The notes under the pieces: model-generated
Told to the model about the DNA's origin: nothing
The model's input: the letters and a program-made list of their open reading frames with translations, nothing else
Databases searched by the model: none
In this document: positions 3,122 through 64,000 of the stretch, piece after piece
Position numbering within the stretch: position 1 is the first letter of the stretch
Layout of the letters: each line of letters opens with the position of its first letter
Program-made: the position numbers and the translations under genes
Source of the DNA: an uncultured Candidatus Saccharibacteria bacterium
GTDB lineage: Bacteria > Patescibacteriota > SICC01
Length of the DNA stretch: 64,000 nucleotides
Direction of reading: 5' to 3'
Assembly: GCA_964525455.1 (NCBI GenBank)
Contig: CAZGHP010000001.1
Span: forward strand, 8,766-72,765

Positions 3122-3742
3122 ATGCAGATCACCAAGATTGAAAAACAAGCCAAGCGTGATCGTTACAACGTGCACGCGGACGGGAAGTTCGTGGCGGCGC
3201 TCGATGCCGGCGTGCTTGCCGGAGCAGGACTCTCCGAAGGTGATATCCTCACCAACGTCGAATTGGCAACGCTCTTGCAACGTGAACGTTTTGCGAAGGC
3301 GTTGGCGAAAGCCTACCAGCTGCTGGCCCGCCGGTCGCACAGCGTCAGCGAATTGACTCGAAAGCTGGGGGAGCGGGGATTCGGCACAGCCCTGGCCGTG
3401 GCGGTCTGCGAGCATCTCGGGGAACGCGGCTATCTCGACGACCGTGCGTTCGCGAAACAATGGGTCACGTACCGCGGTGGTACGCGTGGTAACCGGCTGC
3501 TCCGCATGGAACTCAGGAAACGCGGTGTAGCGGACGATGTGATCACCGAAGCGCTGGCGGAAGGCGAACGGGATCAACTGACGTCGGCAAAGTCCCTGGC
3601 CCGCCGGCGACTCGAACGCTTCCGGGACGCGCCCCCGGAGGTCGTTACCGAAAAACTAGGAGCGTTCCTGGTCCGCCGCGGATATGATTACGCGACGGCC
3701 CGCGCGGCGGTGTCGGAGCTCGTCACTACCGGGAAATCCTGA
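3122..3742 (+). CDS. recX: regulatory protein RecX
   Basis: Immediately downstream of recA. The internal Met at 3122 follows the recA stop. The helical repeat protein has RecX-like composition, and the listed ORF start at 3020 overlaps recA. Confidence 0.75.
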   Translation: MQITKIEKQAKRDRYNVHADGKFVAALDAGVLAGAGLSEGDILTNVELATLLQRERFAKALAKAYQLLARRSHSVSELTRKLGERGFGTALAVAVCEHLGERGYLDDRAFAKQWVTYRGGTRGNRLLRMELRKRGVADDVITEALAEGERDQLTSAKSLARRRLERFRDAPPEVVTEKLGAFLVRRGYDYATARAAVSELVTTGKS

Positions 3743-15106: not shown

Positions 15107-15547
15107 ATGAGTAACACTTCGTACATCAATAGGTTTGTAATCACGGAGTCGCATTCATTGGTGGCAGTTGGATTATTGATTGCGATCCAATCATTTCTTT
15201 TTCAAGAGAATGTTCAGACCGTAGACCTAGGAATTCTTTACAGCATGAAGTTGGCTATCTGGTTCTTGCTAATAATTTTTCTTGGGGAGCTTACCTGGGA
15301 GTTGATCAAGAATGGTTACGAAAGTTCTGTTGGAAAGACAAAAGATTGGATTCCAGCGTCTATACTGCTCGTTCCATTTGGGTTTCTATTGTTGTCTTCA
15401 GTTGGAGTTCTAGTCGAACTAAGCGAGTGCATCAAATGCCCACCTTCTGTGTATGTTCCAGACGTATACTTCTTAGCATTCATTGCTCCAGTTATTTTCG
15501 TATTTATAAAGATTCTACGTTTTGTAAAAAAAATTGGGCGGTATTAA
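15107..15547 (+). CDS. polytopic membrane protein, hypothetical (low-GC island cargo)
   Basis: 146 aa, four hydrophobic helices, AT-rich codon usage unlike the flanks. Confidence 0.4.
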   Translation: MSNTSYINRFVITESHSLVAVGLLIAIQSFLFQENVQTVDLGILYSMKLAIWFLLIIFLGELTWELIKNGYESSVGKTKDWIPASILLVPFGFLLLSSVGVLVELSECIKCPPSVYVPDVYFLAFIAPVIFVFIKILRFVKKIGRY

Positions 15548-16524
15548 CCTTTCCCATGAAACTTCTTATGCACCTCCCGCAGCTGCGGGTTGGTGACGTG
15601 CGTGTAGACCTGGGTGGTCGTGATCGAGGCGTGGCCGAGCATCTGCTGGACGCTCCGGATGTCGGCGCCGTTCCGGAGCAGTCCCGTCGCGAACGAGTGC
15701 CGCAGCGTGTGCGGGGTCACGTCCTTCACCAGGCCGGCCGCCGCCGCGTACTTCTTGATGACCCGCTGCACCGACCGCGGCGTCAGCCGGAGGTCGGATC
15801 CGTCGGGCTCTTCCTTCACCTCGGCGGAGCGGGTCAGCAGCGGCTTCAGCGCCATCTGTGATCGTCCGCGTTTGTCCAAGTACGCCGCGAGGTGCTCCGT
15901 GGCCCGTACCGAGAGAAAGACGATCCGCGGCTTGTCGCCTTTGCCACGCACCATGAACTCGCCGCGTTCGGCGTTCACCTGGTCGGTGTCGAGGGAACAG
16001 AGCTCGGAGACGCGCAGCCCCGTGGAGTAGAAGAGCTCGAGGATCGCGCGGTCGCGGAGGCTCGTGAACGTGTCCTTGGTGCCGGCGGCTTCCAAGAGCC
16101 GCTCGACCTCCTCCGGCGTCAGGAACTCGACGCTCCGTCGTTCGGTCTTGCCGAGTTCGATCTTGTCGGCGGAAAGGGTCATCACGTCACGGCGGGCCAG
16201 GTACTTGAGCAGCGCCCGGATCGCGATCACGTGGTAGTTCTGGGTGAGCCGGCCGAGTTCGCCGCCCTGCGGGGTGGGCTGGCGGTTCAGCCAGATCCGG
16301 AAACTCCGGACCGCGTCGATCGTGATGTCCCGCGCCGTGGCGACGCCGTTCCGCGCTCCCCAGCGCATGAACCGGCCGAGGTAGTGTTCGTAATTGCGAA
16401 GCGTGAGCCGTGAAAGTTGCCGCTCCACCTCGCAGTATTCGAGAAATTGCGTGATGTATTCGGCGAGTTCGGTTTTGGGGCGGGGCGTCGCTGCCAGCTG
16501 CCCAGATGTCGCTTTTTTCGGCAT
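15544..16524 (-). CDS. xerD: tyrosine site-specific recombinase, XerC/XerD family
   Basis: C-terminal HTLRHSFATGLLRNGADIRSVQQMLGHASITTTQVYTHV catalytic motif. Its stop codon overlaps the stop of the island gene. Confidence 0.85.
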   Translation of the reverse strand: MPKKATSGQLAATPRPKTELAEYITQFLEYCEVERQLSRLTLRNYEHYLGRFMRWGARNGVATARDITIDAVRSFRIWLNRQPTPQGGELGRLTQNYHVIAIRALLKYLARRDVMTLSADKIELGKTERRSVEFLTPEEVERLLEAAGTKDTFTSLRDRAILELFYSTGLRVSELCSLDTDQVNAERGEFMVRGKGDKPRIVFLSVRATEHLAAYLDKRGRSQMALKPLLTRSAEVKEEPDGSDLRLTPRSVQRVIKKYAAAAGLVKDVTPHTLRHSFATGLLRNGADIRSVQQMLGHASITTTQVYTHVTNPQLREVHKKFHGKG

Positions 16525-28169: not shown

Positions 28170-29435
28170 GTGACCCCGAAGAAATCGACCAAAAAAAGCA
28201 TCTCACGCACCCGCCGGGCACCCCGTGTTCCCAAGGTGAAGATTCCTGAGTCCCGTTCCGGCAAGATCGCCGCAGGCGTAGTGGCCGGCTTGGTACTGCT
28301 CTATTTCGTCTACGCGATCATCCTCTACACCACCGGCGGCAGCGACGGCCTTACGCGGTTCGTCTCGCACTTCGCCTACTATCCGGCGGCCAAGACGTTC
28401 ACGCCGGACTACCTCTGGTGGTTCCTCGGCGGCCTGCTCTCGACGCTGGTGCTCGTGGGTACCGTCCTGAAGTTCGCGTGGTACGGCCTCGCCGGCAAGG
28501 TGATGGCACCGAAGAAGGCGGTCATCCTCGGGGTCGTGGCGGTGCTGGCCTGCCTTTCGCAGATCTGGCTGCCGCCCGTGACCGAAGTGTCGGTCAGCTA
28601 CGGTTCGTATCTCGAGCGGGCCAAGACGCTGGAGAAGATCCAAGGTGCCCAGCAGCAGGCACAGGGGCTTCCGTCCGTACCGGAGGTAGCGCTGCAGGCG
28701 CAGGCCTTGCAGCAGCAGGTCGCCTCCGCGATCACCCAGCAGGAGTCCACCAAACTCGGCGTGTCCGTGAAGGACAGCAAGGTCGAGGAAGCGTACGACC
28801 AGCAGGCCGAGAAGGTCCAAGGTGAGGACGAGCTCAAGCGACTGCTCCGTGAGCGTCTGGGCTGGTCAGTCGGGGAGTACAAGGAAGAGCTTCGCGACAA
28901 CGTGTTGATCCAGGAGGCGCTGAACGAAAAGATCTCGTCCGACGAGGACCTCAACCGCGATGCGCGGGAGAAGGCGGACGGGGCCAAGCAGCGGCTGGAT
29001 AAGAAGGAAAGCTTCGCGGCGGTCGCCAAGGACGTTTCCGAGGATCCGACGGCCAAGGAAGGCGGGTCGATCGGCGAACTCAAGCGTGGGGAAATGGATC
29101 CTGCGATCGAGAAGGTCGCTTTCGAGCTTAAGGTCGGCGCGGTGAGTGACGTAATCAGGACCCAGCAGGGCTTCGTGATTATCCAAGTGGAGAGTCGTGA
29201 TGAGGGTTCCGTCGAACTCAATCAGATCACCGTGGTCGGGAAGTCGGTCGCGACATACTTCCAGGAGATCCTTCCCAAGACGACCGTGTGGGTGCTGGTG
29301 AACGGCCTGAAATGGGACGACACGCTCTTCGCGGTCCAGCCGACGGAACAGCCGCAGCCGCAGCCGGGTGCCGTGCAGACCGCGCCGGCGGGGGCAGCTT
29401 CTCCACAACCGCCGGCAGCCTCGCCCGCCTCCTAG
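28170..29435 (+). CDS. membrane-anchored PpiC/parvulin-type peptidyl-prolyl isomerase (SurA/PrsA-like)
   Basis: N-terminal TM. Parvulin domain FAAVAKDVSEDPTAKEGGSIGEL...DVIRTQQGFVIIQV. In-frame GTG at 28170 has a GAGG RBS; the longer ORF from 28095 is the alternative. Confidence 0.7.
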   Translation: MTPKKSTKKSISRTRRAPRVPKVKIPESRSGKIAAGVVAGLVLLYFVYAIILYTTGGSDGLTRFVSHFAYYPAAKTFTPDYLWWFLGGLLSTLVLVGTVLKFAWYGLAGKVMAPKKAVILGVVAVLACLSQIWLPPVTEVSVSYGSYLERAKTLEKIQGAQQQAQGLPSVPEVALQAQALQQQVASAITQQESTKLGVSVKDSKVEEAYDQQAEKVQGEDELKRLLRERLGWSVGEYKEELRDNVLIQEALNEKISSDEDLNRDAREKADGAKQRLDKKESFAAVAKDVSEDPTAKEGGSIGELKRGEMDPAIEKVAFELKVGAVSDVIRTQQGFVIIQVESRDEGSVELNQITVVGKSVATYFQEILPKTTVWVLVNGLKWDDTLFAVQPTEQPQPQPGAVQTAPAGAASPQPPAASPAS

Positions 29436-29512
29436 TCCGCGGCAGCCTCGCTTCCGAAGGGGAAATCCCGATATACTGGTACGGTACGCATCGTATCGGT
29501 GCCTACACGCCT

Positions 29513-29590
29513 GGGGGCGTAGCTCAGTCTGGTTAGAGCGCCTGCCTGTCACGCAGGAGGTCGCCGGTTCGAGTCCGGTCGTCCCCGCCA
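29513..29590 (+). tRNA. tRNA-Asp (anticodon GTC), CCA encoded
   Basis: GGGGGCG/CGTCCCC acceptor, GGTTCGAGTCC T-arm, anticodon loop CTGTCAC. Confidence 0.85.
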
Positions 29591-29596
29591 CGAATC

Positions 29597-29626
29597 AAAA
29601 AGTGTCTTTACAGAGGCACTTTTTGA
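29597..29626 (+). terminator. stem-loop AAAAAGTG...CACTTTTTG after tRNA-Asp
   Basis: Inverted A-run and T-run around a GC stem. Confidence 0.45.
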
Positions 29627-29648
29627 TGTTATGATATCCCGCCTTAAC

Positions 29649-29666
29649 AACTTGGCTAACCGGCCA
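29649..29666. repeat. left arm of an 18-bp perfect inverted repeat (AACTTGGCTAACCGGCCA)
   Basis: Exact reverse complement of 30405-30422. Confidence 0.7.
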
Positions 29667-29702
29667 CCATTCTTTTATCCATCAAGCGATCCGGGAGGAA
29701 AC

Positions 29703-30338
29703 ATGGCCAATATATGGAAGGCTGCCTTATGCGCCTTGCTGCTCATCGCGTTCGTCTTTGCGGTGATGTGGCCTTTCCCCTCCGGTGACGGGGACTCGCC
29801 GCGTGAGTCGTCCGGCACCGCCGCGACCGGGGAGCTGTCCACGGTAAAGGGCGTACGGATTCCCCTGGGCACTAGCGCAGAGGAGTACCCGGACGTCGTC
29901 AACGACCCTGCCTGCCGACCCATCAAACCGGGAGCGGTAGTGGGAGATCCATCCGGCCGCTACAGCTGCGGGAGCGATAATCCATTCGAGGCGGGCGGAT
30001 ACCGTCACTTGAACACCCTTGACCGTGAGTGCTATTCACGGGGTCGTCCGTGCGTATACGCGATGACGGTCAGCAAAGATGCTTCCGTAGCGTTCAAGCG
30101 ACGGTTCAGTGCCGATCCGTGTGGAATCGTACGGCATCGTCAGGTTCAGGCCTGGCGAAAGGTCATGCGGCATACACCACCCCGACACCGGCCTGACCAT
30201 CGGTGGGTTCCGACAAAGTGCATTGCCACCGGCGACCTCGCTTTCTTCAACGGTCTGGTTCCTGGCGGCAAGCAACCCGATCCGAAACCCTACGATCCCA
30301 GCAGCGCCACAAACCTCTCCAACCCCAACGACTGGTAG
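29703..30338 (+). CDS. secreted Cys-rich protein (8 Cys), hypothetical
   Basis: GGGAGGAAAC RBS before the ATG at 29703, followed by a signal peptide. GC is slightly lower than the flanks. Confidence 0.4.
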   Translation: MANIWKAALCALLLIAFVFAVMWPFPSGDGDSPRESSGTAATGELSTVKGVRIPLGTSAEEYPDVVNDPACRPIKPGAVVGDPSGRYSCGSDNPFEAGGYRHLNTLDRECYSRGRPCVYAMTVSKDASVAFKRRFSADPCGIVRHRQVQAWRKVMRHTPPRHRPDHRWVPTKCIATGDLAFFNGLVPGGKQPDPKPYDPSSATNLSNPNDW

Positions 30339-30404
30339 TGAATGGTGGCATCGGCAGCCCGGATTTTCTTTTTAGATATTCGGGCTGCCATCCACTTTTA
30401 GTGA

Positions 30405-30422
30405 TGGCCGGTTAGCCAAGTT
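30405..30422. repeat. right arm of the 18-bp perfect inverted repeat (TGGCCGGTTAGCCAAGTT)
   Basis: Exact reverse complement of 29649-29666. Confidence 0.7.
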
Positions 30423-30679
30423 AGCCTCGAGCCTTGTCGCAATGCCCTGACAACCCCTGATCGGTTTGTGAGGCTTATTCCATAGTGCCGATTGAGCCAG
30501 GACTGGGCGAATATCCGCCTTGCTCGGACGTCAGGTAAGCGACTGATTACCCACCGCTTCCCTTCGGGGGTGCTCAGCGTCCCGCCTGCCGCCCCGCTTA
30601 CCCTCAACCGTTCGGTTGTGCCACAATGAACCCGACGTAAGACAAACGCACCTCGAACAATCAGAAAGGGGGTGGCCGG

Positions 30680-31267
30680 ATGGATTCGGTCGTGCCGTTC
30701 CTCATTGCCTTGCTCATCGGGCGGCAGAACGCAGTCGTCGTCGCAGACGCGACCGGGATGCCTTACTGGCACACCCTCGTCCTGACGGCGGCATTCTTCT
30801 TCGCCGTCGCATGTGTGCTGACCGGGTTGAGTCATCTGCCTCCGCTCGCGCGCAGGATACGGGAGCTTCAGCAGTCTCGTTGGGGACGCGGCGTGGTCCG
30901 GGTCGTGCGACCTCGCTGGCGGGGCGTCGTGGTGATCCCCTTGTGCCTGCTGCCGCTCGGACCGCTCCTGGCTCTCGCCCTGATGGCGATCTGGCAGTTC
31001 CGAGCAGTGACCCAGGTCATCCTGGTGACGATCGGCGGCACCGTTTCGTACGCTGTGTATGGGGCGATCATGGCACCGTTCCTTGACCTGCTGGGTACCA
31101 GGAACGTCGTCATCCTCATCGTGATTGCATTCCTGTTGGGTCGCGTCCTCAAGTCCTACTCGCACCTGATGTGGCGGATCGTCGATTGGTTACGGTCAGG
31201 AACCGGCCTGGCACCCCGTACCTACCGTCGAGCGTGTGACCGCTTTAGCTGGTCAACCACCCGCTGA
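30680..31267 (+). CDS. polytopic membrane protein, hypothetical
   Basis: AAAGGGGGTG RBS; 5-6 hydrophobic helices. The overlapping minus-strand ORF is low-complexity and was rejected. Confidence 0.4.
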   Translation: MDSVVPFLIALLIGRQNAVVVADATGMPYWHTLVLTAAFFFAVACVLTGLSHLPPLARRIRELQQSRWGRGVVRVVRPRWRGVVVIPLCLLPLGPLLALALMAIWQFRAVTQVILVTIGGTVSYAVYGAIMAPFLDLLGTRNVVILIVIAFLLGRVLKSYSHLMWRIVDWLRSGTGLAPRTYRRACDRFSWSTTR

Positions 31268-31391: not shown

Positions 31392-33275
31392 ATGGTTGAT
31401 AAAGCCGCGCCGGACGAAGCGCAGGGGCGGGCGGCGGCTATCGAGGCGTTCGAGTCGATCGGCCGAGAGGACTGGGAACGTATCGTGGAGGCGCTGGAAA
31501 GCGAAGCGTCTCCGGCCACGGCGGATTGGCGGAGCCTGGAGTCGGAACGTACTCCCGCGGAGGTGCTTGAGCAGCTCGCCCGGGTGAAGGTGGCCGTCCC
31601 GGGGAACAACCAGCAGGTCCACAAGCACCATCACAACCGGACGGTAGAGAACCACATCAAGCTCGCGTTGGAGGTCGCCGGTTCCAAGCCGCACCTGGAG
31701 ACGTTTCTAGAAATCGTGAAGGCACGGCTGGAATCTCGACCAGGGCCGCAACAGGAATTACTGGCGCGGCAAGCCCTGCTGCTCTGGGCACCGGCCGCGG
31801 AGATCATCGGGGACTACCGGACGAAGATCGATCTGGAAAACCTTTCTTTCCCGATACTCTACCCGCAGGAGACCCGGAAGATCGAAAAGACGTACGAATT
31901 CCTCGGTGGTGAGGAAGCGATCGACGCCGCGGCGGAGGAATACGGCAGCTTCGTCCGCAGCCTGTTGGAAAGCGAGGTTCCCGGGCTGACAGGACACCTG
32001 ACCGTGCAGTCACGGCGGAAAAGTTACTATAATATCTGGCGCCGGTCCATGAAGGAGGGCCGGCCGGATTACCGCCTGCCCGACTTCTTCGGGGTACGGG
32101 CGATCGTGGACTCGGGTATCGGCGAGCCGGAGGCGGTCAAGTATTGCTATGCGGCGGCGGGCGTACTTGGCGAGCTGTTCGAGCCCGCGCCGCAATGGCA
32201 ACGCGACTACATCACCCGGCCGAAGCCGAACGGGTACCAGAGCATCCACCTGGACCTGGAAGAGGGAGAATCGCGCCTGGAGGTACAGATCAGGACGTCC
32301 GACATGCACCGGCGCGCCGAATCGGATGCGGATACGTCACACATGGCCTATGAAGCCTGGACGAAGATTACCCCCGGGAGATTGTTCCAGCCGGGATTGG
32401 CCAAACCTCCTGCTGTCGTACGGTGGCGTGACGAGACGGCGGAACGGATACGCACCAGTGATGACGGTTCGCTGGTCGGGCATCGCCCGGACCGGGTCCT
32501 GGCGTTCACGCCGGACGGTAATCTCTATGAGATGGCCGCGAGCGACACGTTGCTCGACTTCGCGTTCGCCGTCCATGACCGGCGGGCGTTGCGCACCGAA
32601 CGGATCGTCGTCAACGGCTCCCAGGCTGCTTTCGACAGCGCGGTCCGGATGGGTGACTGCGTCGAGATCGCTTATGACCGGGAACTGCGGTGGACCGACG
32701 ATTGGTCTGGCAAGGTACAGTCCGACCGGGCTCGCAAGCGGCTGCGTCGCGCGCATCGTGAAAGACACGCCGAAGCATTCCGGCAGGTTGCGGTCACGGA
32801 TGTCGAGGGGGTGTTCGAGCGGCTTGGTATCGATAATCCGCTCAATATCCTCACTGACAAAGACGAGCGGAGACTGGCCCGGAAATATGCCGTGCGGGAC
32901 TTCGATATGGTCTTGCAGAAGATCGGTGCCGGTGAAGAAGCGCCGGGGCGGGTGATCAATCAAGTCCAACGGCGGCTCGAGCAGCAGCAAGGCGAGCCGC
33001 CTGAGACGGCCACTGATCTGTTCGAGCAGGTAAGCGGCGTTCGGGAGGAAGCCAGCGAAGTGGCGATTACCGGAATCCACGGCTGTGAGTATCACCTTGC
33101 CGGCTGTTGCGCTCCTACTCCCGGGACGTCGGAGATCATGGCGGCCGCGAGCCAGCGTCGCGGGGCCCTGACGATCCATCGGGCGGACTGCGGACAGCTC
33201 GATCGGGAGCGCGCGTTCGTCTGTAGCTGGACGGAACCGACCCGGGAGGGAGATCAGGCTACGGCAGCGGATTAA
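31392..33275 (+). CDS. relA: RelA/SpoT family (p)ppGpp synthetase with a degenerate N-terminal HD region, TGS domain and C-terminal Cys-rich/ACT region
   Basis: Synthetase motifs YQSIHLDL and EVQIRTSDMHRRAE; TGS VLAFTPDGNLYEM...DFAFAVH; conserved C-terminal C..C...C cluster. The HD catalytic dyad is not recognisable. Confidence 0.8.
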   Translation: MVDKAAPDEAQGRAAAIEAFESIGREDWERIVEALESEASPATADWRSLESERTPAEVLEQLARVKVAVPGNNQQVHKHHHNRTVENHIKLALEVAGSKPHLETFLEIVKARLESRPGPQQELLARQALLLWAPAAEIIGDYRTKIDLENLSFPILYPQETRKIEKTYEFLGGEEAIDAAAEEYGSFVRSLLESEVPGLTGHLTVQSRRKSYYNIWRRSMKEGRPDYRLPDFFGVRAIVDSGIGEPEAVKYCYAAAGVLGELFEPAPQWQRDYITRPKPNGYQSIHLDLEEGESRLEVQIRTSDMHRRAESDADTSHMAYEAWTKITPGRLFQPGLAKPPAVVRWRDETAERIRTSDDGSLVGHRPDRVLAFTPDGNLYEMAASDTLLDFAFAVHDRRALRTERIVVNGSQAAFDSAVRMGDCVEIAYDRELRWTDDWSGKVQSDRARKRLRRAHRERHAEAFRQVAVTDVEGVFERLGIDNPLNILTDKDERRLARKYAVRDFDMVLQKIGAGEEAPGRVINQVQRRLEQQQGEPPETATDLFEQVSGVREEASEVAITGIHGCEYHLAGCCAPTPGTSEIMAAASQRRGALTIHRADCGQLDRERAFVCSWTEPTREGDQATAAD

Positions 33276-33739
33276 CGGGTGCCGCGGGCCCGGTGCTCCA
33301 GTTGCTGCACGCGCCGGTCGTGGCGGCCGCCGCCGAAATCCGTCTCCAGGAATGCCGTGATGATCGGCCCGGCGTCCTCGGCCGAAAGTCGGCGGCCCGC
33401 CAGCGTCAAGACGTTGATGTCGTTATGCTCGCGGGCCAGCCGGGCCTCTTCCGGGTCATGGGCGTTGACCGCCCGCACGCCGGCTGTCTTGTTCGCCGCG
33501 ATCGCCACGCCGTTGCCCGAGCCGCACACGAGGATTCCCCGGCCGTCGCCGGCAGCTACGTGCCTTGCTACCGCACGCGCGATCGACGGATAGTCGACCG
33601 ACTCCTCGCTGTCGGTACCGACGTCCCGTACGGCGTATCCGTGCCCGGCCAGCACCTGCTTCACCGCCTCCTTGAGCCGGAACCCGCCGTGGTCGGCACC
33701 GATGATGATCACATCGTCCATCTGCCTTTCACTGTACAC
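33272..33739 (-). CDS. rpiB: ribose-5-phosphate isomerase B (RpiB/LacAB family)
   Basis: IIIGADHGGF and VCGSGNGVAIAANK motifs. Confidence 0.88.
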   Translation of the reverse strand: MYSERQMDDVIIIGADHGGFRLKEAVKQVLAGHGYAVRDVGTDSEESVDYPSIARAVARHVAAGDGRGILVCGSGNGVAIAANKTAGVRAVNAHDPEEARLAREHNDINVLTLAGRRLSAEDAGPIITAFLETDFGGGRHDRRVQQLEHRARGTR

Positions 33740-40840: not shown

Positions 40841-41404
40841 ATGCCCGAGCTAACGTTAAATCCCGAATCCACCGCCCGTGCCGAATACGAATTCTGGCGG
40901 GCGCATGACGATAAGGACCCGAGTCGGCTCCGCTCCGCGCTGGAGCGCTGGACGGGCGAACTGTATGGATTAGAACCGGACGTGTCGGCAGAAGCAGTCG
41001 GGCATCTGTTTGGCGCGGTCGCGGCCCATGATACCCGCGAGTGGGACGCGGCAGTCGAGCACGCCGCGCGATACTATGCGGTCATCGAAAAGCATTCCGG
41101 ACTATCTTTCGATCCGCGCCAGGCGGGGGAGCTTGAGGTAGCTTGGTGGCGCATCCATGACGAACTGGAGCACGAGGCGGACAAAGGGCCATTGGTAGAT
41201 GCGTTCTCCCGGTTGTATGCGGAAGTCTTCGGTGCCCCGGTGGACGCGGTCCGGCAGGCGTGCGAGCTGAAAGCGCAGGCGACCGTGGAGCATGATCGGG
41301 CTGAAGATGATGGGGTGGATCCGGAGCAAGCGGAGCGGCATTGGCACGCTGCCGCGGAGTGCCTCCGCAGCAGCTATACTGCACTGCAGCGTAATTTGAA
41401 TTAG
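40841..41404 (+). CDS. hypothetical acidic helical protein
   Basis: 187-aa ORF directly after the tRNA pair. Confidence 0.35.
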   Translation: MPELTLNPESTARAEYEFWRAHDDKDPSRLRSALERWTGELYGLEPDVSAEAVGHLFGAVAAHDTREWDAAVEHAARYYAVIEKHSGLSFDPRQAGELEVAWWRIHDELEHEADKGPLVDAFSRLYAEVFGAPVDAVRQACELKAQATVEHDRAEDDGVDPEQAERHWHAAAECLRSSYTALQRNLN

Positions 41405-58508: not shown

Positions 58509-58811
58509 TCAGCCGCCGATGCGGTAGGCCGGCCGGACGCCAAGCAGGTCGCTGAGTAGGTAGGCGACGATGATGTACGCCAGGAAGATGATGATCAGGC
58601 CGAGGATCGCATAGAGCACGGTGTGGCGTGCTTTTTCGACGCCTTCCGGGTTTCCTAGCGAGATGATGAACCGGAAACCGCCGATGATGATGAAGAGCAG
58701 CGCGATGGCGCCGGCCCAGAGCAGTAGCGTACCGATCACCTGCCCGAACAGCGACGAGGCGTCGAAGTCGATCAGGGGGTTGGGGACCTGTGGCGGTGAA
58801 AGTGGGTTCAT
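58509..58811 (-). CDS. small two-TM membrane protein, hypothetical (VirB2/TrbC-pilin-like topology)
   Basis: Start at the internal Met (58811). Hydrophobic hairpin with a short NPEGVEKARH loop. Confidence 0.35.
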   Translation of the reverse strand: MNPLSPPQVPNPLIDFDASSLFGQVIGTLLLWAGAIALLFIIIGGFRFIISLGNPEGVEKARHTVLYAILGLIIIFLAYIIVAYLLSDLLGVRPAYRIGG

Positions 58812-59005
58812 CGTGTTTGGTAGTGTAGCGCAGTCCGCCCGGCTTAGCGATAAAAGCGCGATACGTCGAGCTTTTAACAGCTTTTGACGATACCGCATGC
58901 GGACCGCATTGACAAGCGCATCAGCAACCGACTATAGTGAATAGCGAGCGACCATACGGTTGCCGGAGGGAGGAGGGCCATCGGGTTCGGGTAACCATCT
59001 GTCTT

Positions 59006-60165: not shown

Positions 60166-60662
60166 GGCGCTTTCTCCTGATCGATACCGCGGCCGAGCCG
60201 TCTGTGGCGGCGATTGCCACCAGCCGGTCGGTACTGGCGGAGGCGACCGTACCGGACCGGAAGCGCTTATCCGAGGAGCTGCTGGCCCGGATCGACACCC
60301 TGAGCCGGGAGGCGCAGCAACCGCTTGCAGGCATCGCGGCGATCGGCATCGTGACCGGTCCCGGACCGTTCACGGCCCTGCGGATCGGGGTGGCCATAGC
60401 GAACGCGCTGGCTTATGCCCACCGTATCCCGATCGTCCCGGCGGAGAAGCCGGAAGTGGCGTCGGTGCCGGCCTTCGCCTCGTTGGTGGCGGAACGCCTG
60501 GAGGCCGGCAAGACTGCCCGGGCGGTCCTTCCTAGCTATGGCCGCGAACCGTCGATTACTCCGCCGAAACGCGGTACACCGTCACCGGGCCGTCCGTCTG
60601 TCCGGAGCCGGCGGGGAACCGCTCCCACACCGGATACCGACGGGCGAAGAACCGCTCGTTGA
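60162..60662 (+). CDS. tsaB: TsaB (YeaZ)-like tRNA t6A protein, shortened form (~166 aa)
   Basis: LLIDTAAEPSVAAIA and TGPGPFTALRIGVAIANALA motifs. ATGA overlap with tsaE. Confidence 0.72.
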   Translation: MRRFLLIDTAAEPSVAAIATSRSVLAEATVPDRKRLSEELLARIDTLSREAQQPLAGIAAIGIVTGPGPFTALRIGVAIANALAYAHRIPIVPAEKPEVASVPAFASLVAERLEAGKTARAVLPSYGREPSITPPKRGTPSPGRPSVRSRRGTAPTPDTDGRRTAR

Positions 60663-62604
60663 CGGTAAAGCCTTCATCGCCCCGTTCCGCCGGCCCGATG
60701 ACCACGAAGTCCACGCCGTAGTGCCGGAGCAGGGCGGGTGTTTCCGGTACCCCTTCGTACATCCGCCTGACGTCGTCCTCCCGCTCGGCATACTCCAGGC
60801 CGTAGCTCCAGAGCCAGCCGGTGTAGCCCAGCAGCAGCCGCTGGCCGGCCAGGGAGGCGAAGGGATTGTTCACTTGCTGGGCCGTCAGCCAGATCGAATC
60901 CGGCGCGGCCGACTCGCGGGCCGCCATCGCGATCCGCTGGGCACGCTCATCGAACATCGCCGCCCGGTAATGGTTCGGCGGGAGCGTCCGGGTGACATCC
61001 GCCAACCCGGCCAGGACCAGGAACGGGAAGATGGCAATGACAGACGCCTTGCCAACCCGGCCCCGTCCGAACAGCCAGACCAGGAACGCGCTGACCGCGG
61101 GAATGCTCAGGACCAACCAGTACACCAGGAACTTGGTATTGTCCCAGTCCCACGGCTGGAATACGAGCAGGTTCGTGAGCACCCAGACGATACCGGCCGC
61201 GAGCGTGAACCGGAGCAGAAGCGAATCGCGTCCGCGCAGCCAGAAAAAACCCATCAGCAGGAGCGGCAGGAACAGTCCGAGGTTCTTCAGCCAGAACCAG
61301 GGGAGGAAATCCCCGTGTGCCGTCCAGCCGAATTGCGGACGCAGGAACGCGGTCGCCTGGACGCCGGCGGAAAGCCAGAGTACCTGCGGCAACGCAAGCA
61401 GCAGGATCGGTACGACGAAATAGAGCCACGGCCTGAGGTACTTCCAGCGGAAGCGTCTGCGTCGGCGCCCCGCGAGCCGCTTCCAGGTGAGGAGTGCCAA
61501 CCCGGGGGTCAGGAGCCCCAGGAACACCAGCGAGTGGGTGTGTACCAACGGCAGCAAGGCGGCGATGAGGCCGGCGGCCAGGAACGGCTCGCGGGGCGCC
61601 CGGTCGCGTAATCCTGCGTAGAGCAGGCAGAGGACGGTCAGGGTGATCGGCAGGCCGAAAAGGAATGCCCGCTGCGGAATGATATACGCGAAGATCGGGT
61701 TGATGAAGTTGATGTTCGACACCGGCACCTCCCCGAAGGTCAGGGTGTATTCGTGCGGGAGATTCCGGAGGAATTCACCGAGCGGCATGCCGGAGGCGGA
61801 AAGGTCGGTGAAGAAGTTGACGAAACCGAGGCCGCCGAACGCATAAAACAGTACGGCACCGACGAGCATCGTTCCCGGCCCGGCGGTCAAGCGGAGCAAC
61901 GCGGTGAGCATGCCGAGTCCGGAGATCACCAGCAGTACTCCCGGGATCTTCATGGCGGTCAGTAGCCCGAACCCCCCGGTGACTAGCAGTGCCGAAGCGA
62001 AGTTCGTGAGCAACGGATAGGTTATCTTCTGTCCGCTAAGCACGGTCTGTTCCGGCGGGAAGTTCTCGCCGTACGCGAAACTAGTGGTCTGGGCGAGATG
62101 CTGGTTCCAGTCGCCCCAGACGTTACTGAATCCGACGTAGATCGTGCCGCCCTCGGCGAAGAGCGCCTGCCACATGATCACGCCGAGCGCTGCGGCCAAA
62201 CCGCCGAACAGCACCGCTCCCACCCGGAACGGCCACGTCCGCAGCCGGGCACGCACATCGGCGAATTCTTCACGTATCCGCCGACGGACGGCGGCACGCC
62301 GCCAGATTGCCACGGTTCCCACCGCTCCGAGCAGAGCCGGTACCAGCAGGGCACCGGCATCCATGCCGAACAGCAACGCGTAGACGAAACCGGTCAGGCC
62401 CCCGGCGGCCAGTCCGATCGGCACGCCGGCGAATACCCGTTCCTCGATCCGGAGCGCGAGCGGCAGCAGACATGCGAGGGAAAACCCGAACGCGACGGTC
62501 GAAAGCAGGAAGAATATTCCCAACATACTTACCAGCCTAGCTCGCCCGGTGCCCCGCGGTCGAGGTGGTATAGTGGGATGGCAATGATAAAGGAACCATC
62601 CCAT
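60556..62604 (-). CDS. large polytopic membrane protein with C-terminal soluble domain (possibly a GT-C-fold glycosyltransferase; family uncertain)
   Basis: 682 aa with more than 12 TM helices. Its 3' end overlaps tsaB convergently by ~107 nt; the true start may be the internal Met at 62526. Confidence 0.5.
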   Translation of the reverse strand: MGWFLYHCHPTIPPRPRGTGRARLVSMLGIFFLLSTVAFGFSLACLLPLALRIEERVFAGVPIGLAAGGLTGFVYALLFGMDAGALLVPALLGAVGTVAIWRRAAVRRRIREEFADVRARLRTWPFRVGAVLFGGLAAALGVIMWQALFAEGGTIYVGFSNVWGDWNQHLAQTTSFAYGENFPPEQTVLSGQKITYPLLTNFASALLVTGGFGLLTAMKIPGVLLVISGLGMLTALLRLTAGPGTMLVGAVLFYAFGGLGFVNFFTDLSASGMPLGEFLRNLPHEYTLTFGEVPVSNINFINPIFAYIIPQRAFLFGLPITLTVLCLLYAGLRDRAPREPFLAAGLIAALLPLVHTHSLVFLGLLTPGLALLTWKRLAGRRRRRFRWKYLRPWLYFVVPILLLALPQVLWLSAGVQATAFLRPQFGWTAHGDFLPWFWLKNLGLFLPLLLMGFFWLRGRDSLLLRFTLAAGIVWVLTNLLVFQPWDWDNTKFLVYWLVLSIPAVSAFLVWLFGRGRVGKASVIAIFPFLVLAGLADVTRTLPPNHYRAAMFDERAQRIAMAARESAAPDSIWLTAQQVNNPFASLAGQRLLLGYTGWLWSYGLEYAEREDDVRRMYEGVPETPALLRHYGVDFVVIGPAERGDEGFTVNERFFARRYPVWERFPAGSGQTDGPVTVYRVSAE

Positions 62605-64000
62605 GGATACGGTATTGTTACTGATCGTGGCTGCGGCAGCGGGAGCTGGTCTCGGTTACGCGATTTTTTCAAATCGCGGCAAAGGACAGCAGGAACGCGC
62701 GCACGCCAAGGCTGAGAAGGAACTCGCGGAGGCGGAGACCAAGGCCAAGGATATCCTGCTCAAAGCGCAGGATGATTCGCTGAAGGCCAAGGAATCCGCC
62801 CAGGAAGACGTCCGGGACCGTCGGAAGCAGCTGGAAGCGACCGAGTCGCGGCTGGCTTCCCGAGAACAGAACCTCGATCGCAAGGAAAAGCAGCTTGAGG
62901 AAAGGCTCGGACAACTTGAGAAGGACCGCGAGCAAGCCAAGACGTTGAAGGAGGAGATCGCCGAGGTCAAGGAGCGCCAGGTACAGAACCTGGAGAAAGT
63001 CGCCAAGCTCACCCAGGCCAAGGCCAAGGACGTGCTACTCAAGATGCTTGAGAAGGAGTTCTCCGAAGAGTTCGCACGGAAGATCCACGACCTTGAGGAA
63101 CAGGCCAAGGAAGAGGGCGAGCAGCGGGCGAAGAAGATCATCGCCGCTTCGATCCAGCGCTACGCCGCCGATCAGTCGGCGGAGCTCACGGTGACGACCG
63201 TCCAGATCCCGAACGAGGAGATCAAGGGTCGGATCATCGGGAAGGAAGGCCGGAACATCCAGTCGTTCGAGAAGGCGACCGGTGTGGACATCATCGTCGA
63301 CGACACGCCGGACACGATCGTGATTTCCGGCTACAACCCGGTGCGGCGGCAGATCGCCCGGATCGCCATGGAGAAGCTGGTATCCGACGGACGGATCAAC
63401 CCGTCGCGGATCGAGGAAGTGGTCGGCAAGGCCGAGAAGGAAGTGAACCAGATCGCCAAGAAGGCCGGAGAAGAGGCGGTCTACGAACTCAAGCTGAGCG
63501 GCCTCAATCCGGACCTGGTGAAGCTGCTCGGCACCATGAAGTTCCGGACTTCCTACGGCCAGAACATCCTCAAGCACTCGGTCGAGGTGAGTTTCATCGC
63601 GCAGATGCTGGCCGGCGAGCTCGGCGTGGACGCGACCAAGGCCAAGCTGGTCGGCCTGTTCCATGACATCGGCAAGGCCGTGACCCACGAGGTCGAAGGG
63701 CCGCACGCGTTGATCGGCCGCGACATCTGCAAGAAGTACGGCCTGCCGGAGGACGTCTGCCACGCGGTCGGCGCGCACCATGAGGACCTGCCGATCGAGT
63801 CCACGCTCGACATCATCTGCCAGGTCTCCGACGCGATCTCAGGTGCCCGCCCGGGCGCGCGGCGCGAAAGCTACGAGCAGTACGTCAAGCGCCTCCAAGA
63901 ACTGGAGAACGTGGCGAACGCCTTCGACGGCGTGGAAAAGACCTACGCGATCCAGGCCGGCCGCGAGATCCGGATCCTCGTGAAACCGCAGGAGATCGAC
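62603..64000 (+). CDS. rny: ribonuclease Y, 5' portion (3' end outside window)
   Basis: N-terminal TM, coiled-coil, KH domain IIGKEGRNIQSFE, HD domain LFHDIGKA...HH. No stop before the window edge. Confidence 0.92.
   Translation, partial: MDTVLLLIVAAAAGAGLGYAIFSNRGKGQQERAHAKAEKELAEAETKAKDILLKAQDDSLKAKESAQEDVRDRRKQLEATESRLASREQNLDRKEKQLEERLGQLEKDREQAKTLKEEIAEVKERQVQNLEKVAKLTQAKAKDVLLKMLEKEFSEEFARKIHDLEEQAKEEGEQRAKKIIAASIQRYAADQSAELTVTTVQIPNEEIKGRIIGKEGRNIQSFEKATGVDIIVDDTPDTIVISGYNPVRRQIARIAMEKLVSDGRINPSRIEEVVGKAEKEVNQIAKKAGEEAVYELKLSGLNPDLVKLLGTMKFRTSYGQNILKHSVEVSFIAQMLAGELGVDATKAKLVGLFHDIGKAVTHEVEGPHALIGRDICKKYGLPEDVCHAVGAHHEDLPIESTLDIICQVSDAISGARPGARRESYEQYVKRLQELENVANAFDGVEKTYAIQAGREIRILVKPQEID

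Follow-up and report, generated by a model that had tools for sequence, protein, structure and literature searches.

An inverted repeat around an orphan gene in a variable slot beside tRNA-Asp of a Saccharibacteria genome: candidate ends of a cassette

In this paper we ask why a perfect 18-bp inverted repeat encloses a single small gene directly downstream of a tRNA-Asp gene. The locus lies in a stretch of 64,000 nucleotides (hereafter the window) of contig CAZGHP010000001.1, from an uncultured Candidatus Saccharibacteria bacterium, and the enclosed gene encodes a protein of 211 amino acids (aa) with an N-terminal signal or anchor helix. A preliminary description of this DNA offered two answers: the arms could be the terminal repeats of a small non-autonomous mobile cassette that had inserted at a tRNA hotspot, or they could let the 5' and 3' untranslated regions (UTRs) of the mRNA pair over about 750 nt. 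Our results confirm that the arms are a real inverted repeat around a single gene. They also indicate that this gene sits in what appears to be a conserved expression slot, in which related genomes carry other cargo. We tentatively prefer to read the arms as the ends of a cassette, and below we weigh that reading against an inversion switch, a long-range RNA helix, a neutral scar, a pair of operators and chance.

The inverted repeat and the unit it encloses

The 18-mer AACTTGGCTAACCGGCCA occupies 29649-29666 on the plus strand, and 30405-30422 is its exact reverse complement, as the preliminary description had it. A repeat finder extends the arms to 29649-29669 and 30402-30422, which are 21 nt long, 95% identical (20/21) and separated by 732 nt. 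The described extension to about 21 of 24 positions is reached when the inner extension is added, and the described distance from the tRNA is also right, the tRNA gene ending at 29590 and the left arm beginning 59 nt on. With up to 3 mismatches allowed, the two arms are the sole copies of the 18-mer in the window (chance expectation 0.02), and they form its only perfect inverted repeat of at least 18 nt with arms no more than 3 kb apart. No other gene-flanking inverted repeat was found in the 64 kb.

How much weight can such a repeat bear? First-order Markov simulations give 0.025 perfect pairs of this kind (at least 18 nt, at most 3 kb apart) per 64 kb, or about one for every two to three genomes of ~1 Mb, which is the argument for a chance coincidence in a GC-rich genome. 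Taken alone, these statistics make the repeat only moderately improbable. We nevertheless find the repeat convincing and chance very unlikely, because the match extends to 20/21, because both arms fall in non-coding DNA, which makes up ~19% of the window, and because they are placed symmetrically around one gene; the break in synteny described below argues in the same direction. An independent Logan assembly (run SRR6868922) is identical to the window over 29400-30800, and the repeat is therefore not an assembler artefact.

The features of the locus are listed here from left to right; L005 to L016 denote loci of related genomes, to which we return in the next section.

29513-29590, plus strand: tRNA-Asp(GTC) with encoded CCA (ARAGORN; Rfam tRNA model, 70 bits); kept in L005, L006, L008 and L014
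29594-29627, plus strand: terminator hairpin of tRNA-Asp, with an A-run/T-run on both sides, of the bidirectional type (inverted-repeat finder, fold)
29607-29635, plus strand: predicted promoter TTTACA-17 nt-TGtTATGAT with an extended -10 element (promoter scan, 10/12 matches with TG)
29642-29651, plus strand: CCTTAACAAC, the final block common to relatives (blastn boundaries and alignment; homology stops at 29651)
29649-29669, plus strand: left arm of the inverted repeat (perfect part 29649-29666)
29693-29699, plus strand: Shine-Dalgarno-like GGGAGGA, 4 nt upstream of the ATG
29703-30338, plus strand: orphan open reading frame (ORF) of 211 aa, with an N-terminal signal/anchor helix and 7 Cys (ORF list)
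30339-30400, plus strand: terminator-like hairpin with TTTT at 30396-30399 (core stem 30353-30364 / 30378-30389, extended stem to about 30395)
30402-30422, plus strand: right arm of the inverted repeat (perfect part 30405-30422)
30423-30622, no strand: non-conserved spacer without ORF or RNA family and without alignment to relatives
30623-31267, plus strand: conserved leader (30623-30679) and gene (30680-31267) of a 195-aa membrane protein, forming the right border of the slot

The tRNA terminator folds well (29594-29632: dG -17.8, z -6.2), and its descending arm is overlapped by the predicted promoter, which is the top promoter-like site of the region. A transcript from this promoter would be expected to begin near 29642, so that the left arm would span about +8 to +28. 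The hairpin behind the orphan gene is still more stable (30336-30402: dG -32.1, z -5.8) and, judged by its fold and T-run, is probably the terminator of that gene; the right arm begins at 30402, 3 nt past the T-run. Cargo genes of the relatives end in canonical terminators made of a hairpin and a T-run, and in the alignment the L014 terminator appears to have a hairpin followed by a run of only four T in the equivalent place. The possibility that the 3' hairpin is a repeated element was rejected, as it is single copy across the window and the related loci L005 to L008. The arms bracket a unit of ribosome-binding site (RBS), ORF and terminator that lacks a promoter yet is otherwise complete, and immediately to the left of the arms comes the predicted promoter. 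Beyond the right arm, the ~260 bp described as apparently non-coding are in fact 257 nt (30423-30679) with no convincing ORF and no Rfam match. No known RNA family was found in the cassette or in this spacer at either gathering or relaxed Rfam thresholds.

The enclosed gene had been introduced as coding for a signal-peptide protein with 8 Cys. The hydrophobic N-terminal helix is there, whereas the number of Cys is 7 (positions 10, 71, 89, 110, 117, 140 and 173), with 6 in the mature part. A word-index search of 5.8 billion proteins and a full phmmer search of 1.84 billion cluster representatives both returned no homologue other than the protein itself. There is also no Pfam or NCBIfam match, and tblastn against the relatives' loci found nothing. 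The annotated frame scores best of the six by codon score, but weakly, and no alternative ORF with a coding signal was found on the opposite strand. The GC content at third codon positions (GC3) is 0.69, compared with 0.75-0.87 in the neighbouring genes; it is among the four lowest of the 62 window ORFs, which range from 0.63 to 0.90, as expected for a recent arrival. A single-sequence AlphaFold model has a predicted local distance difference test score (pLDDT) of 38 and is confident for residues 1-22 alone, a hydrophobic helix. The gene is thus a probable young or imported gene for a secreted or membrane-anchored protein.

A slot beside tRNA-Asp with differing cargo

For comparison we used seven related loci, L005 to L008 being reached via the upstream PpiC gene and L014 to L016 via the downstream gene of the 195-aa protein. 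The wider neighbourhood in the window is of housekeeping type (NDK, NUDIX, a GT4 glycosyltransferase, a PpiC/SurA-like isomerase, a RelA/SpoT-like protein, PRPP synthetase and ATP synthase), and the closest homologues are annotated as Patescibacteria group metagenome-assembled genomes (MAGs). The PpiC protein of L005 is 71% identical to that of the window. At the DNA level, blastn aligns 29513-29651 with L005 9379-9511 and finds homology again from 30623, where 30623-30800 matches L005 10382-10560 at 89%.

The conserved block on the left consists of the tRNA, its terminator, the extended -10 element TGnTATGAT and CCTTAACAA. The terminator hairpin is kept with compensatory changes in L005 and L014, and the promoter with TGnTATGAT and CCTTAACAA is common to window 29607-29651, L005 9470-9511 and L014 3515-3551. 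The conserved block on the right is the leader of the gene for the 195-aa protein, whose homologues are 70-75% identical in L005, L014, L015 and L016 and 35% identical in L008. The order of the slot is therefore tRNA-Asp, terminator, conserved promoter with CCTTAACAA, variable cargo and the 195-aa membrane-protein gene. The cargo was found to be as follows.

L005 and L014: a 98-aa membrane protein and a 95-aa protein, then a terminator (L005 versus L014: 71% and 83% identity)
L016: the contig starts inside the slot; the 3' part of the 95-aa gene and the terminator are visible
L008: a 233-aa ORF ahead of the 35%-identical homologue of the 195-aa protein
Window: the orphan gene and the arms, without trace of the 98-aa and 95-aa genes

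A comparison of tRNA-Asp loci had been proposed in the preliminary description as a way to judge mobility, and it shows that the cargo varies: in every relative examined, the stretch from tRNA-Asp to the following conserved gene holds other genes. No remnant of the 98-aa and 95-aa genes was found in the window by tblastn or blastn, which rules out that the orphan gene is their decay product. Judged by these alignments, the locus appears to be a conserved, promoter-driven slot whose cargo is exchanged between genomes. The left arm starts (29649) at the point where the homology with L005 and L014 ends (29651), and it includes 3 nt (AAC) of the flank conserved in L005. This coincidence is suggestive of an insertion junction, but it is not proof of one.

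A second variable slot follows the gene for the 195-aa protein (window 31392-33739, L005 11027-11183, L014 5163-6961). It contains the RelA/SpoT-like gene and rpiB in the window and four other small ORFs in L014; L005 and L016 continue straight to PRPP synthetase.

The tRNA-Asp gene had been called a classic integration hotspot, and for the clade this holds, with islands and variable cargo at this tRNA. In L014, an 814-bp island with one 133-aa membrane ORF separates tRNA-Asp from a second 3' end of this gene (2664-2692 / 3478-3506, a direct repeat of 18-29 nt), and the usual terminator, promoter and slot come after it. The island of L006 (9453-10030) has a low-GC AAA_18 gene as its cargo, with a 30-nt copy of the tRNA-Asp 3' end behind it. 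Both islands lack an integrase, and their direct repeats indicate that the 3' end of tRNA-Asp acts as an attachment site in this clade. The window cassette resembles these islands in lying directly downstream of the tRNA gene, but it starts 59 nt beyond it, has a separate promoter between, and is bounded by inverted rather than direct repeats. No second tRNA-Asp 3' end was found in the window at up to 3 to 5 mismatches, and no other tRNA end is copied there either, which rules out insertion of the cassette at the tRNA attachment site.

A 15-mer of tRNA-Asp, GGAGGTCGCCGGTTC (29556-29570), recurs at 31670-31684 in the RelA/SpoT-like gene, and its 12-nt core is found inverted within the orphan ORF at 30228-30239. 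This recurrence is probably chance, given that 3% of tRNA 12-mers recur in the window.

The reading that we prefer, while giving it somewhat less than even confidence, is that the arms are the DNA-level ends of a lineage-specific, promoter-less cassette (29649-30422) within the conserved expression slot. A recombinase or transposase supplied in trans would have recognised the two identical inverted ends and placed the unit of ~770 bp directly behind the resident promoter, at about +8 of its transcript. The earlier cargo, the pair of 98-aa and 95-aa genes kept by three relatives, would have disappeared during this event or through a deletion next to it, and either of these would also erase any target-site duplication. 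The orphan gene would now be transcribed from the resident promoter, with its own hairpin halting transcription ahead of the right arm, and the arms may now be inert. What we observed directly is the repeat, the layout of the cassette, the conserved borders, the differing cargo of the relatives and the lack of homologues of the gene; every step of the mechanism is inferred, including which way the replacement went, the enzyme, and the activity of promoter and terminator. A recent event would fit the low GC3, the absence of homologues and the perfect match between the arms. In particular, the 18/18 identity suggests a young duplication or a need for identity of the DNA, rather than a long-maintained RNA helix.

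Several results weigh against the arms being cassette ends. No target-site duplication was found outside the repeats at any register, the left flank being ...CCTTAAC(AAC) and the right flank AGCCTCG. The 21-mer has no further copy, with up to 5 mismatches, in the window or the relatives' loci, and at none of the related loci is the cargo flanked by inverted repeats. The exact 18-mer was searched in 185,579 species genomes (the source genome not among them), in JGI metagenome contigs and in IMG/VR, and no family of copies exists there: the search gave 3 singletons in the species genomes, 5 in the JGI metagenomes and none in IMG/VR. These 8 loci are unrelated and have no resemblance to the window beyond the arm. 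No transposase was found among ~55 of the 62 predicted window ORFs that were scanned or pre-annotated with Pfam, and the cassette itself, a single ORF without a domain match, contains no integrase gene. The sole recombinase found in the window lies ~13 kb away from the cassette (15547-16524, minus strand); this tyrosine recombinase of 326 aa is XerC/XerD-like, with its best score to XerC/XerD, below the equivalog cut-offs. Finally, unconstrained intergenic DNA would not align in any case at ~70% protein identity, and the homology break at the left arm may just mark the end of the constrained promoter.

These results bear differently on the parts of the original mobile-cassette proposal. A family of miniature inverted-repeat transposable elements (MITEs) or repetitive extragenic palindromic (REP) elements is not supported, with only the two arms in the window and the 8 unrelated singletons elsewhere, no target-site duplication and no transposase. 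What stands is that repeats are present at both ends of the cassette (21 nt at 95%, 18 of them perfect), that lineage-specific cargo occupies a true hotspot and that the left arm is found at the homology break. Among the closest described counterparts of such a unit are mobile insertion cassettes (MICs) and MITEs that carry a passenger, for example MIC231 and the MICs derived from TnXax1 (PMC4337579), which likewise have one passenger gene, no transposase and inverted repeats of ~20 bp in a variable region. In contrast to our locus, MICs have target-site duplications and share their repeats with a multicopy insertion sequence (IS) or Tn family; here neither is found, and there is no related IS.

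Inversion, pairing in RNA and local rearrangement

The same layout might also be that of a whole-gene switch, in which a recombinase flips 29670-30401 between the two inverted sites. We consider this unlikely, though not so unlikely that it could be passed over. In the present orientation the external promoter would express the orphan secreted protein, and the internal terminator would insulate the downstream gene; after the flip, the orphan gene would be silent, and the promoter would read antisense through the cassette towards the gene for the 195-aa protein. Arms of this length, 732 nt apart, are in the usual range for invertible elements, of which the phase-variable cwpV switch of Clostridioides difficile is an example. 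Inverted repeats do flank a short segment here, with the predicted promoter just outside the left arm and the RBS, ORF and terminator inside, the cargo is a secreted or surface-type protein, and a tyrosine recombinase is encoded in the window. On the minus strand we found no terminator-like site between 29300 and 31000, and a flipped cassette would thus leave transcription free to continue. A switch also predicts a unique, locus-specific repeat without a target-site duplication, as is seen. Against it, both assemblies have the same orientation, the Logan contig running unbroken and identical to the window over both arms. Moreover, no invertase-type gene lies within ~13 kb, the sole recombinase scoring best as XerC/XerD, with weak matches to tyrosine invertase models, and the opposite strand offers no alternative coding ORF.

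Invertons, as phase-variable DNA inversion switches are called (PMC11602134; bioRxiv 10.1101/2023.03.11.532203), share with our locus the short inverted repeats, the sub-kilobase segment, the surface or secreted function, the unique repeat and the absence of a duplication. In both layouts flipping would break the link to a fixed element on one side. Described invertons, however, usually hold the promoter inside the segment, whereas here the promoter lies outside and the whole gene with its terminator inside, and neither a second orientation nor a dedicated invertase was seen. A more specific form, in which the arms are the active recombination sites of a whole-gene switch in a bacterium of the Patescibacteria (candidate phyla radiation, CPR), with the promoter outside, the gene and terminator inside and a tRNA-5'-end-derived look, strikes us as decidedly unlikely.

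Two other site-specific systems were considered for the arms. Xer recombination sites are 28 bp long, with an 11-6-11 layout and an ATAA...TTAT core. The dif modules of Acinetobacter plasmids are genes flanked by inverted XerC/D sites (PMC6449649, PMC13141974), and they are similar to our locus in that a small gene module lies between inverted sequences of the size of a recombination site in a genome with a Xer-type recombinase. The arms here are inverted but do not fit the 11-6-11 ATAA/TTAT pattern, and the relatives' cargo is without such sites. In integrons, the core sites are GTTRRRY, to which the GTTAGCC/GGCTAAC motifs of the arms are loosely similar. Like an integron cassette, the unit is a promoter-less ORF read from a fixed external promoter in a place of exchangeable cargo. 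Yet no attC hairpin of the R''-L''...L'-R' type follows the ORF, each arm has its two 7-mers in direct and not in inverted order, and no IntI gene was found in the window, whose recombinase scores far below the integron-integrase model cut-offs. Both the attC-like and the dif-like reading of the arms were ruled out by this site architecture. In its working, the element comes closest to a mobile insertion cassette or an inverton, although not all defining features of either were seen. It belongs neither to integron cassettes or dif modules nor to tRNA-site islands or known RNAs.

The second proposal of the preliminary description, pairing of the two UTRs over ~750 nt, fared unevenly. When the transcript is folded, as was suggested there, the arms do pair in both the minimum free energy (MFE) and the centroid structure of 29642-30440 (z -4.6), as stretches of 18 and 4 bp separated by a C·A mismatch. 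The left arm would lie close to the start of the predicted transcript, at the +8 to +28 given above, and a second perfect complement of the leader, 10 nt long, comes directly after the stop codon (29663-29672 versus 30340-30349). In read-through transcripts the arms would thus form a helix of ~22 bp enclosing the ORF, which could serve as an RNase III-type processing or decay site or as an insulator between the slot promoter and the gene for the 195-aa protein. Pairing of 5' and 3' UTRs is documented for icaR (PMC3868564) and hbs (PMC5737220), where the leader likewise has a complement behind the gene's own stop codon. Our locus differs from them in that the main complement lies past the predicted terminator, the duplex is perfect and much longer, and the Shine-Dalgarno sequence stays uncovered. 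It is the position of the right arm, 3 nt past the T-run of a -32 kcal/mol hairpin, that tells most directly on this proposal, since a terminated mRNA would therefore lack it and only read-through RNA would contain both arms. A perfect 18-nt match without G-U pairs is moreover atypical of an old functional helix, the slot transcripts of the relatives are without such complementarity, and the gene and arms have no homologue in which covariation could be seen. For these reasons we regard a functional RNA duplex as improbable.

The arms have a further property, a resemblance to the 5' end of a tRNA. One of the singleton matches to the 18-mer (L002) falls within a tRNA-Cys called by ARAGORN in an unrelated MAG. 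The right arm is identical to positions 1-17 of this tRNA (30406-30422, plus strand), and the left arm, read on the minus strand from 29665 down to 29641, matches positions 1-25 at 24/25, that is, the 5' strand of the acceptor and the whole D-arm. The tRNA-like parts of both arms point away from the ORF, and 8 of the 25 tRNA-like nt of the left arm lie in the flank common to relatives. When 2.3 Gb of phage DNA was searched with a 40-mer from around the left arm, 23 records matched, and in 14 of the 15 listed the match lies in a tRNA-Gln or tRNA-His gene. Neither ARAGORN nor the Rfam tRNA model finds a tRNA at either arm. A split or decayed tRNA at the arms was ruled out, as nothing tRNA-like continues past position 17 or 25 and the matching 3' half is absent from the window.

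Around the 3' end of the ORF there are additional short repeats. The direct repeats TAGTGAATGG (30336-30345) and TAGTGATGG (30399-30407) bracket the terminator hairpin, and the leader complement at 30340-30349, when joined to 30409-30422, is the exact reverse complement of 29649-29672. The right arm may once have been a contiguous 24-mer that abutted the stop codon and was later split by a terminator-bearing insertion of ~59 nt. Together, the layered repeats and the tRNA-like ends point to repeated local rearrangement.

Such rearrangement raises the question whether the arms have, or had, any function at all. They might be a neutral scar, either with the right arm as an inverted copy of the left junction or with both arms as tRNA-like leftovers, produced by a replication template switch or by illegitimate recombination during regional rearrangement. 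This would agree with the layered repeats around the ORF 3' end, with the 3 nt (AAC) of L005-conserved flank inside the left arm and with both arms being outward-pointing fragments that resemble a tRNA 5' end. A random scar, on the other hand, should hardly enclose a complete expression unit with such precision; we think this origin doubtful. Each arm also holds a weak internal dyad, TGGC-N6-GCCA, and one of the two sites overlaps the predicted transcript start, as might be expected if the arms were a pair of operators at which a regulator loops the DNA around the gene. A 4+4 dyad is, however, expected by chance in a 21-mer, operators have no need of identity over 18 non-palindromic positions, and there is neither an adjacent regulator gene nor another copy in the window, which together make this explanation highly improbable. 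Whatever the origin of the repeat, we found nothing that shows it still moving, flipping or acting as RNA.

Implications and other observations in the window

If the arms are merely cassette ends, the locus is an ordinary example of lineage-specific cargo in a tRNA-adjacent hotspot. The more useful result might then be the slot itself: a small clade of Patescibacteria appears to keep a fixed, promoter-driven position beside tRNA-Asp in which small genes for membrane or secreted proteins are exchanged. Together with the integrase-less, single-gene islands at the tRNA 3' end, this slot would be a place to study how surface genes are acquired and expressed in reduced, IS-poor genomes. If instead the inversion switch were true, it would mean that an ultra-small and probably host-attached bacterium varies a surface or secreted factor by phase, and would extend phase variation to Patescibacteria, for which we know of no described case.

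Some further features of the window were observed. An ORF of 248 aa on the minus strand (63035-63781) has the lowest GC3 of the window (0.63) and no Pfam match, and its exact product has no gene on record in the gene-position index. An ORF of 187 aa (40841-41404; GC3 0.68, no Pfam match) lies directly after tRNA-Gly, at a place where L005 has a dCMP deaminase gene, and may be another tRNA-adjacent, lineage-specific gene. A perfect GC-rich inverted repeat of 16 nt (61464-61479 / 61585-61600, 105 nt apart) is found inside or next to a 682-aa ORF (60556-62604). Lastly, a 129-aa ORF on the minus strand (58512-58898) matches the type IV secretion system pilin family PF18895.

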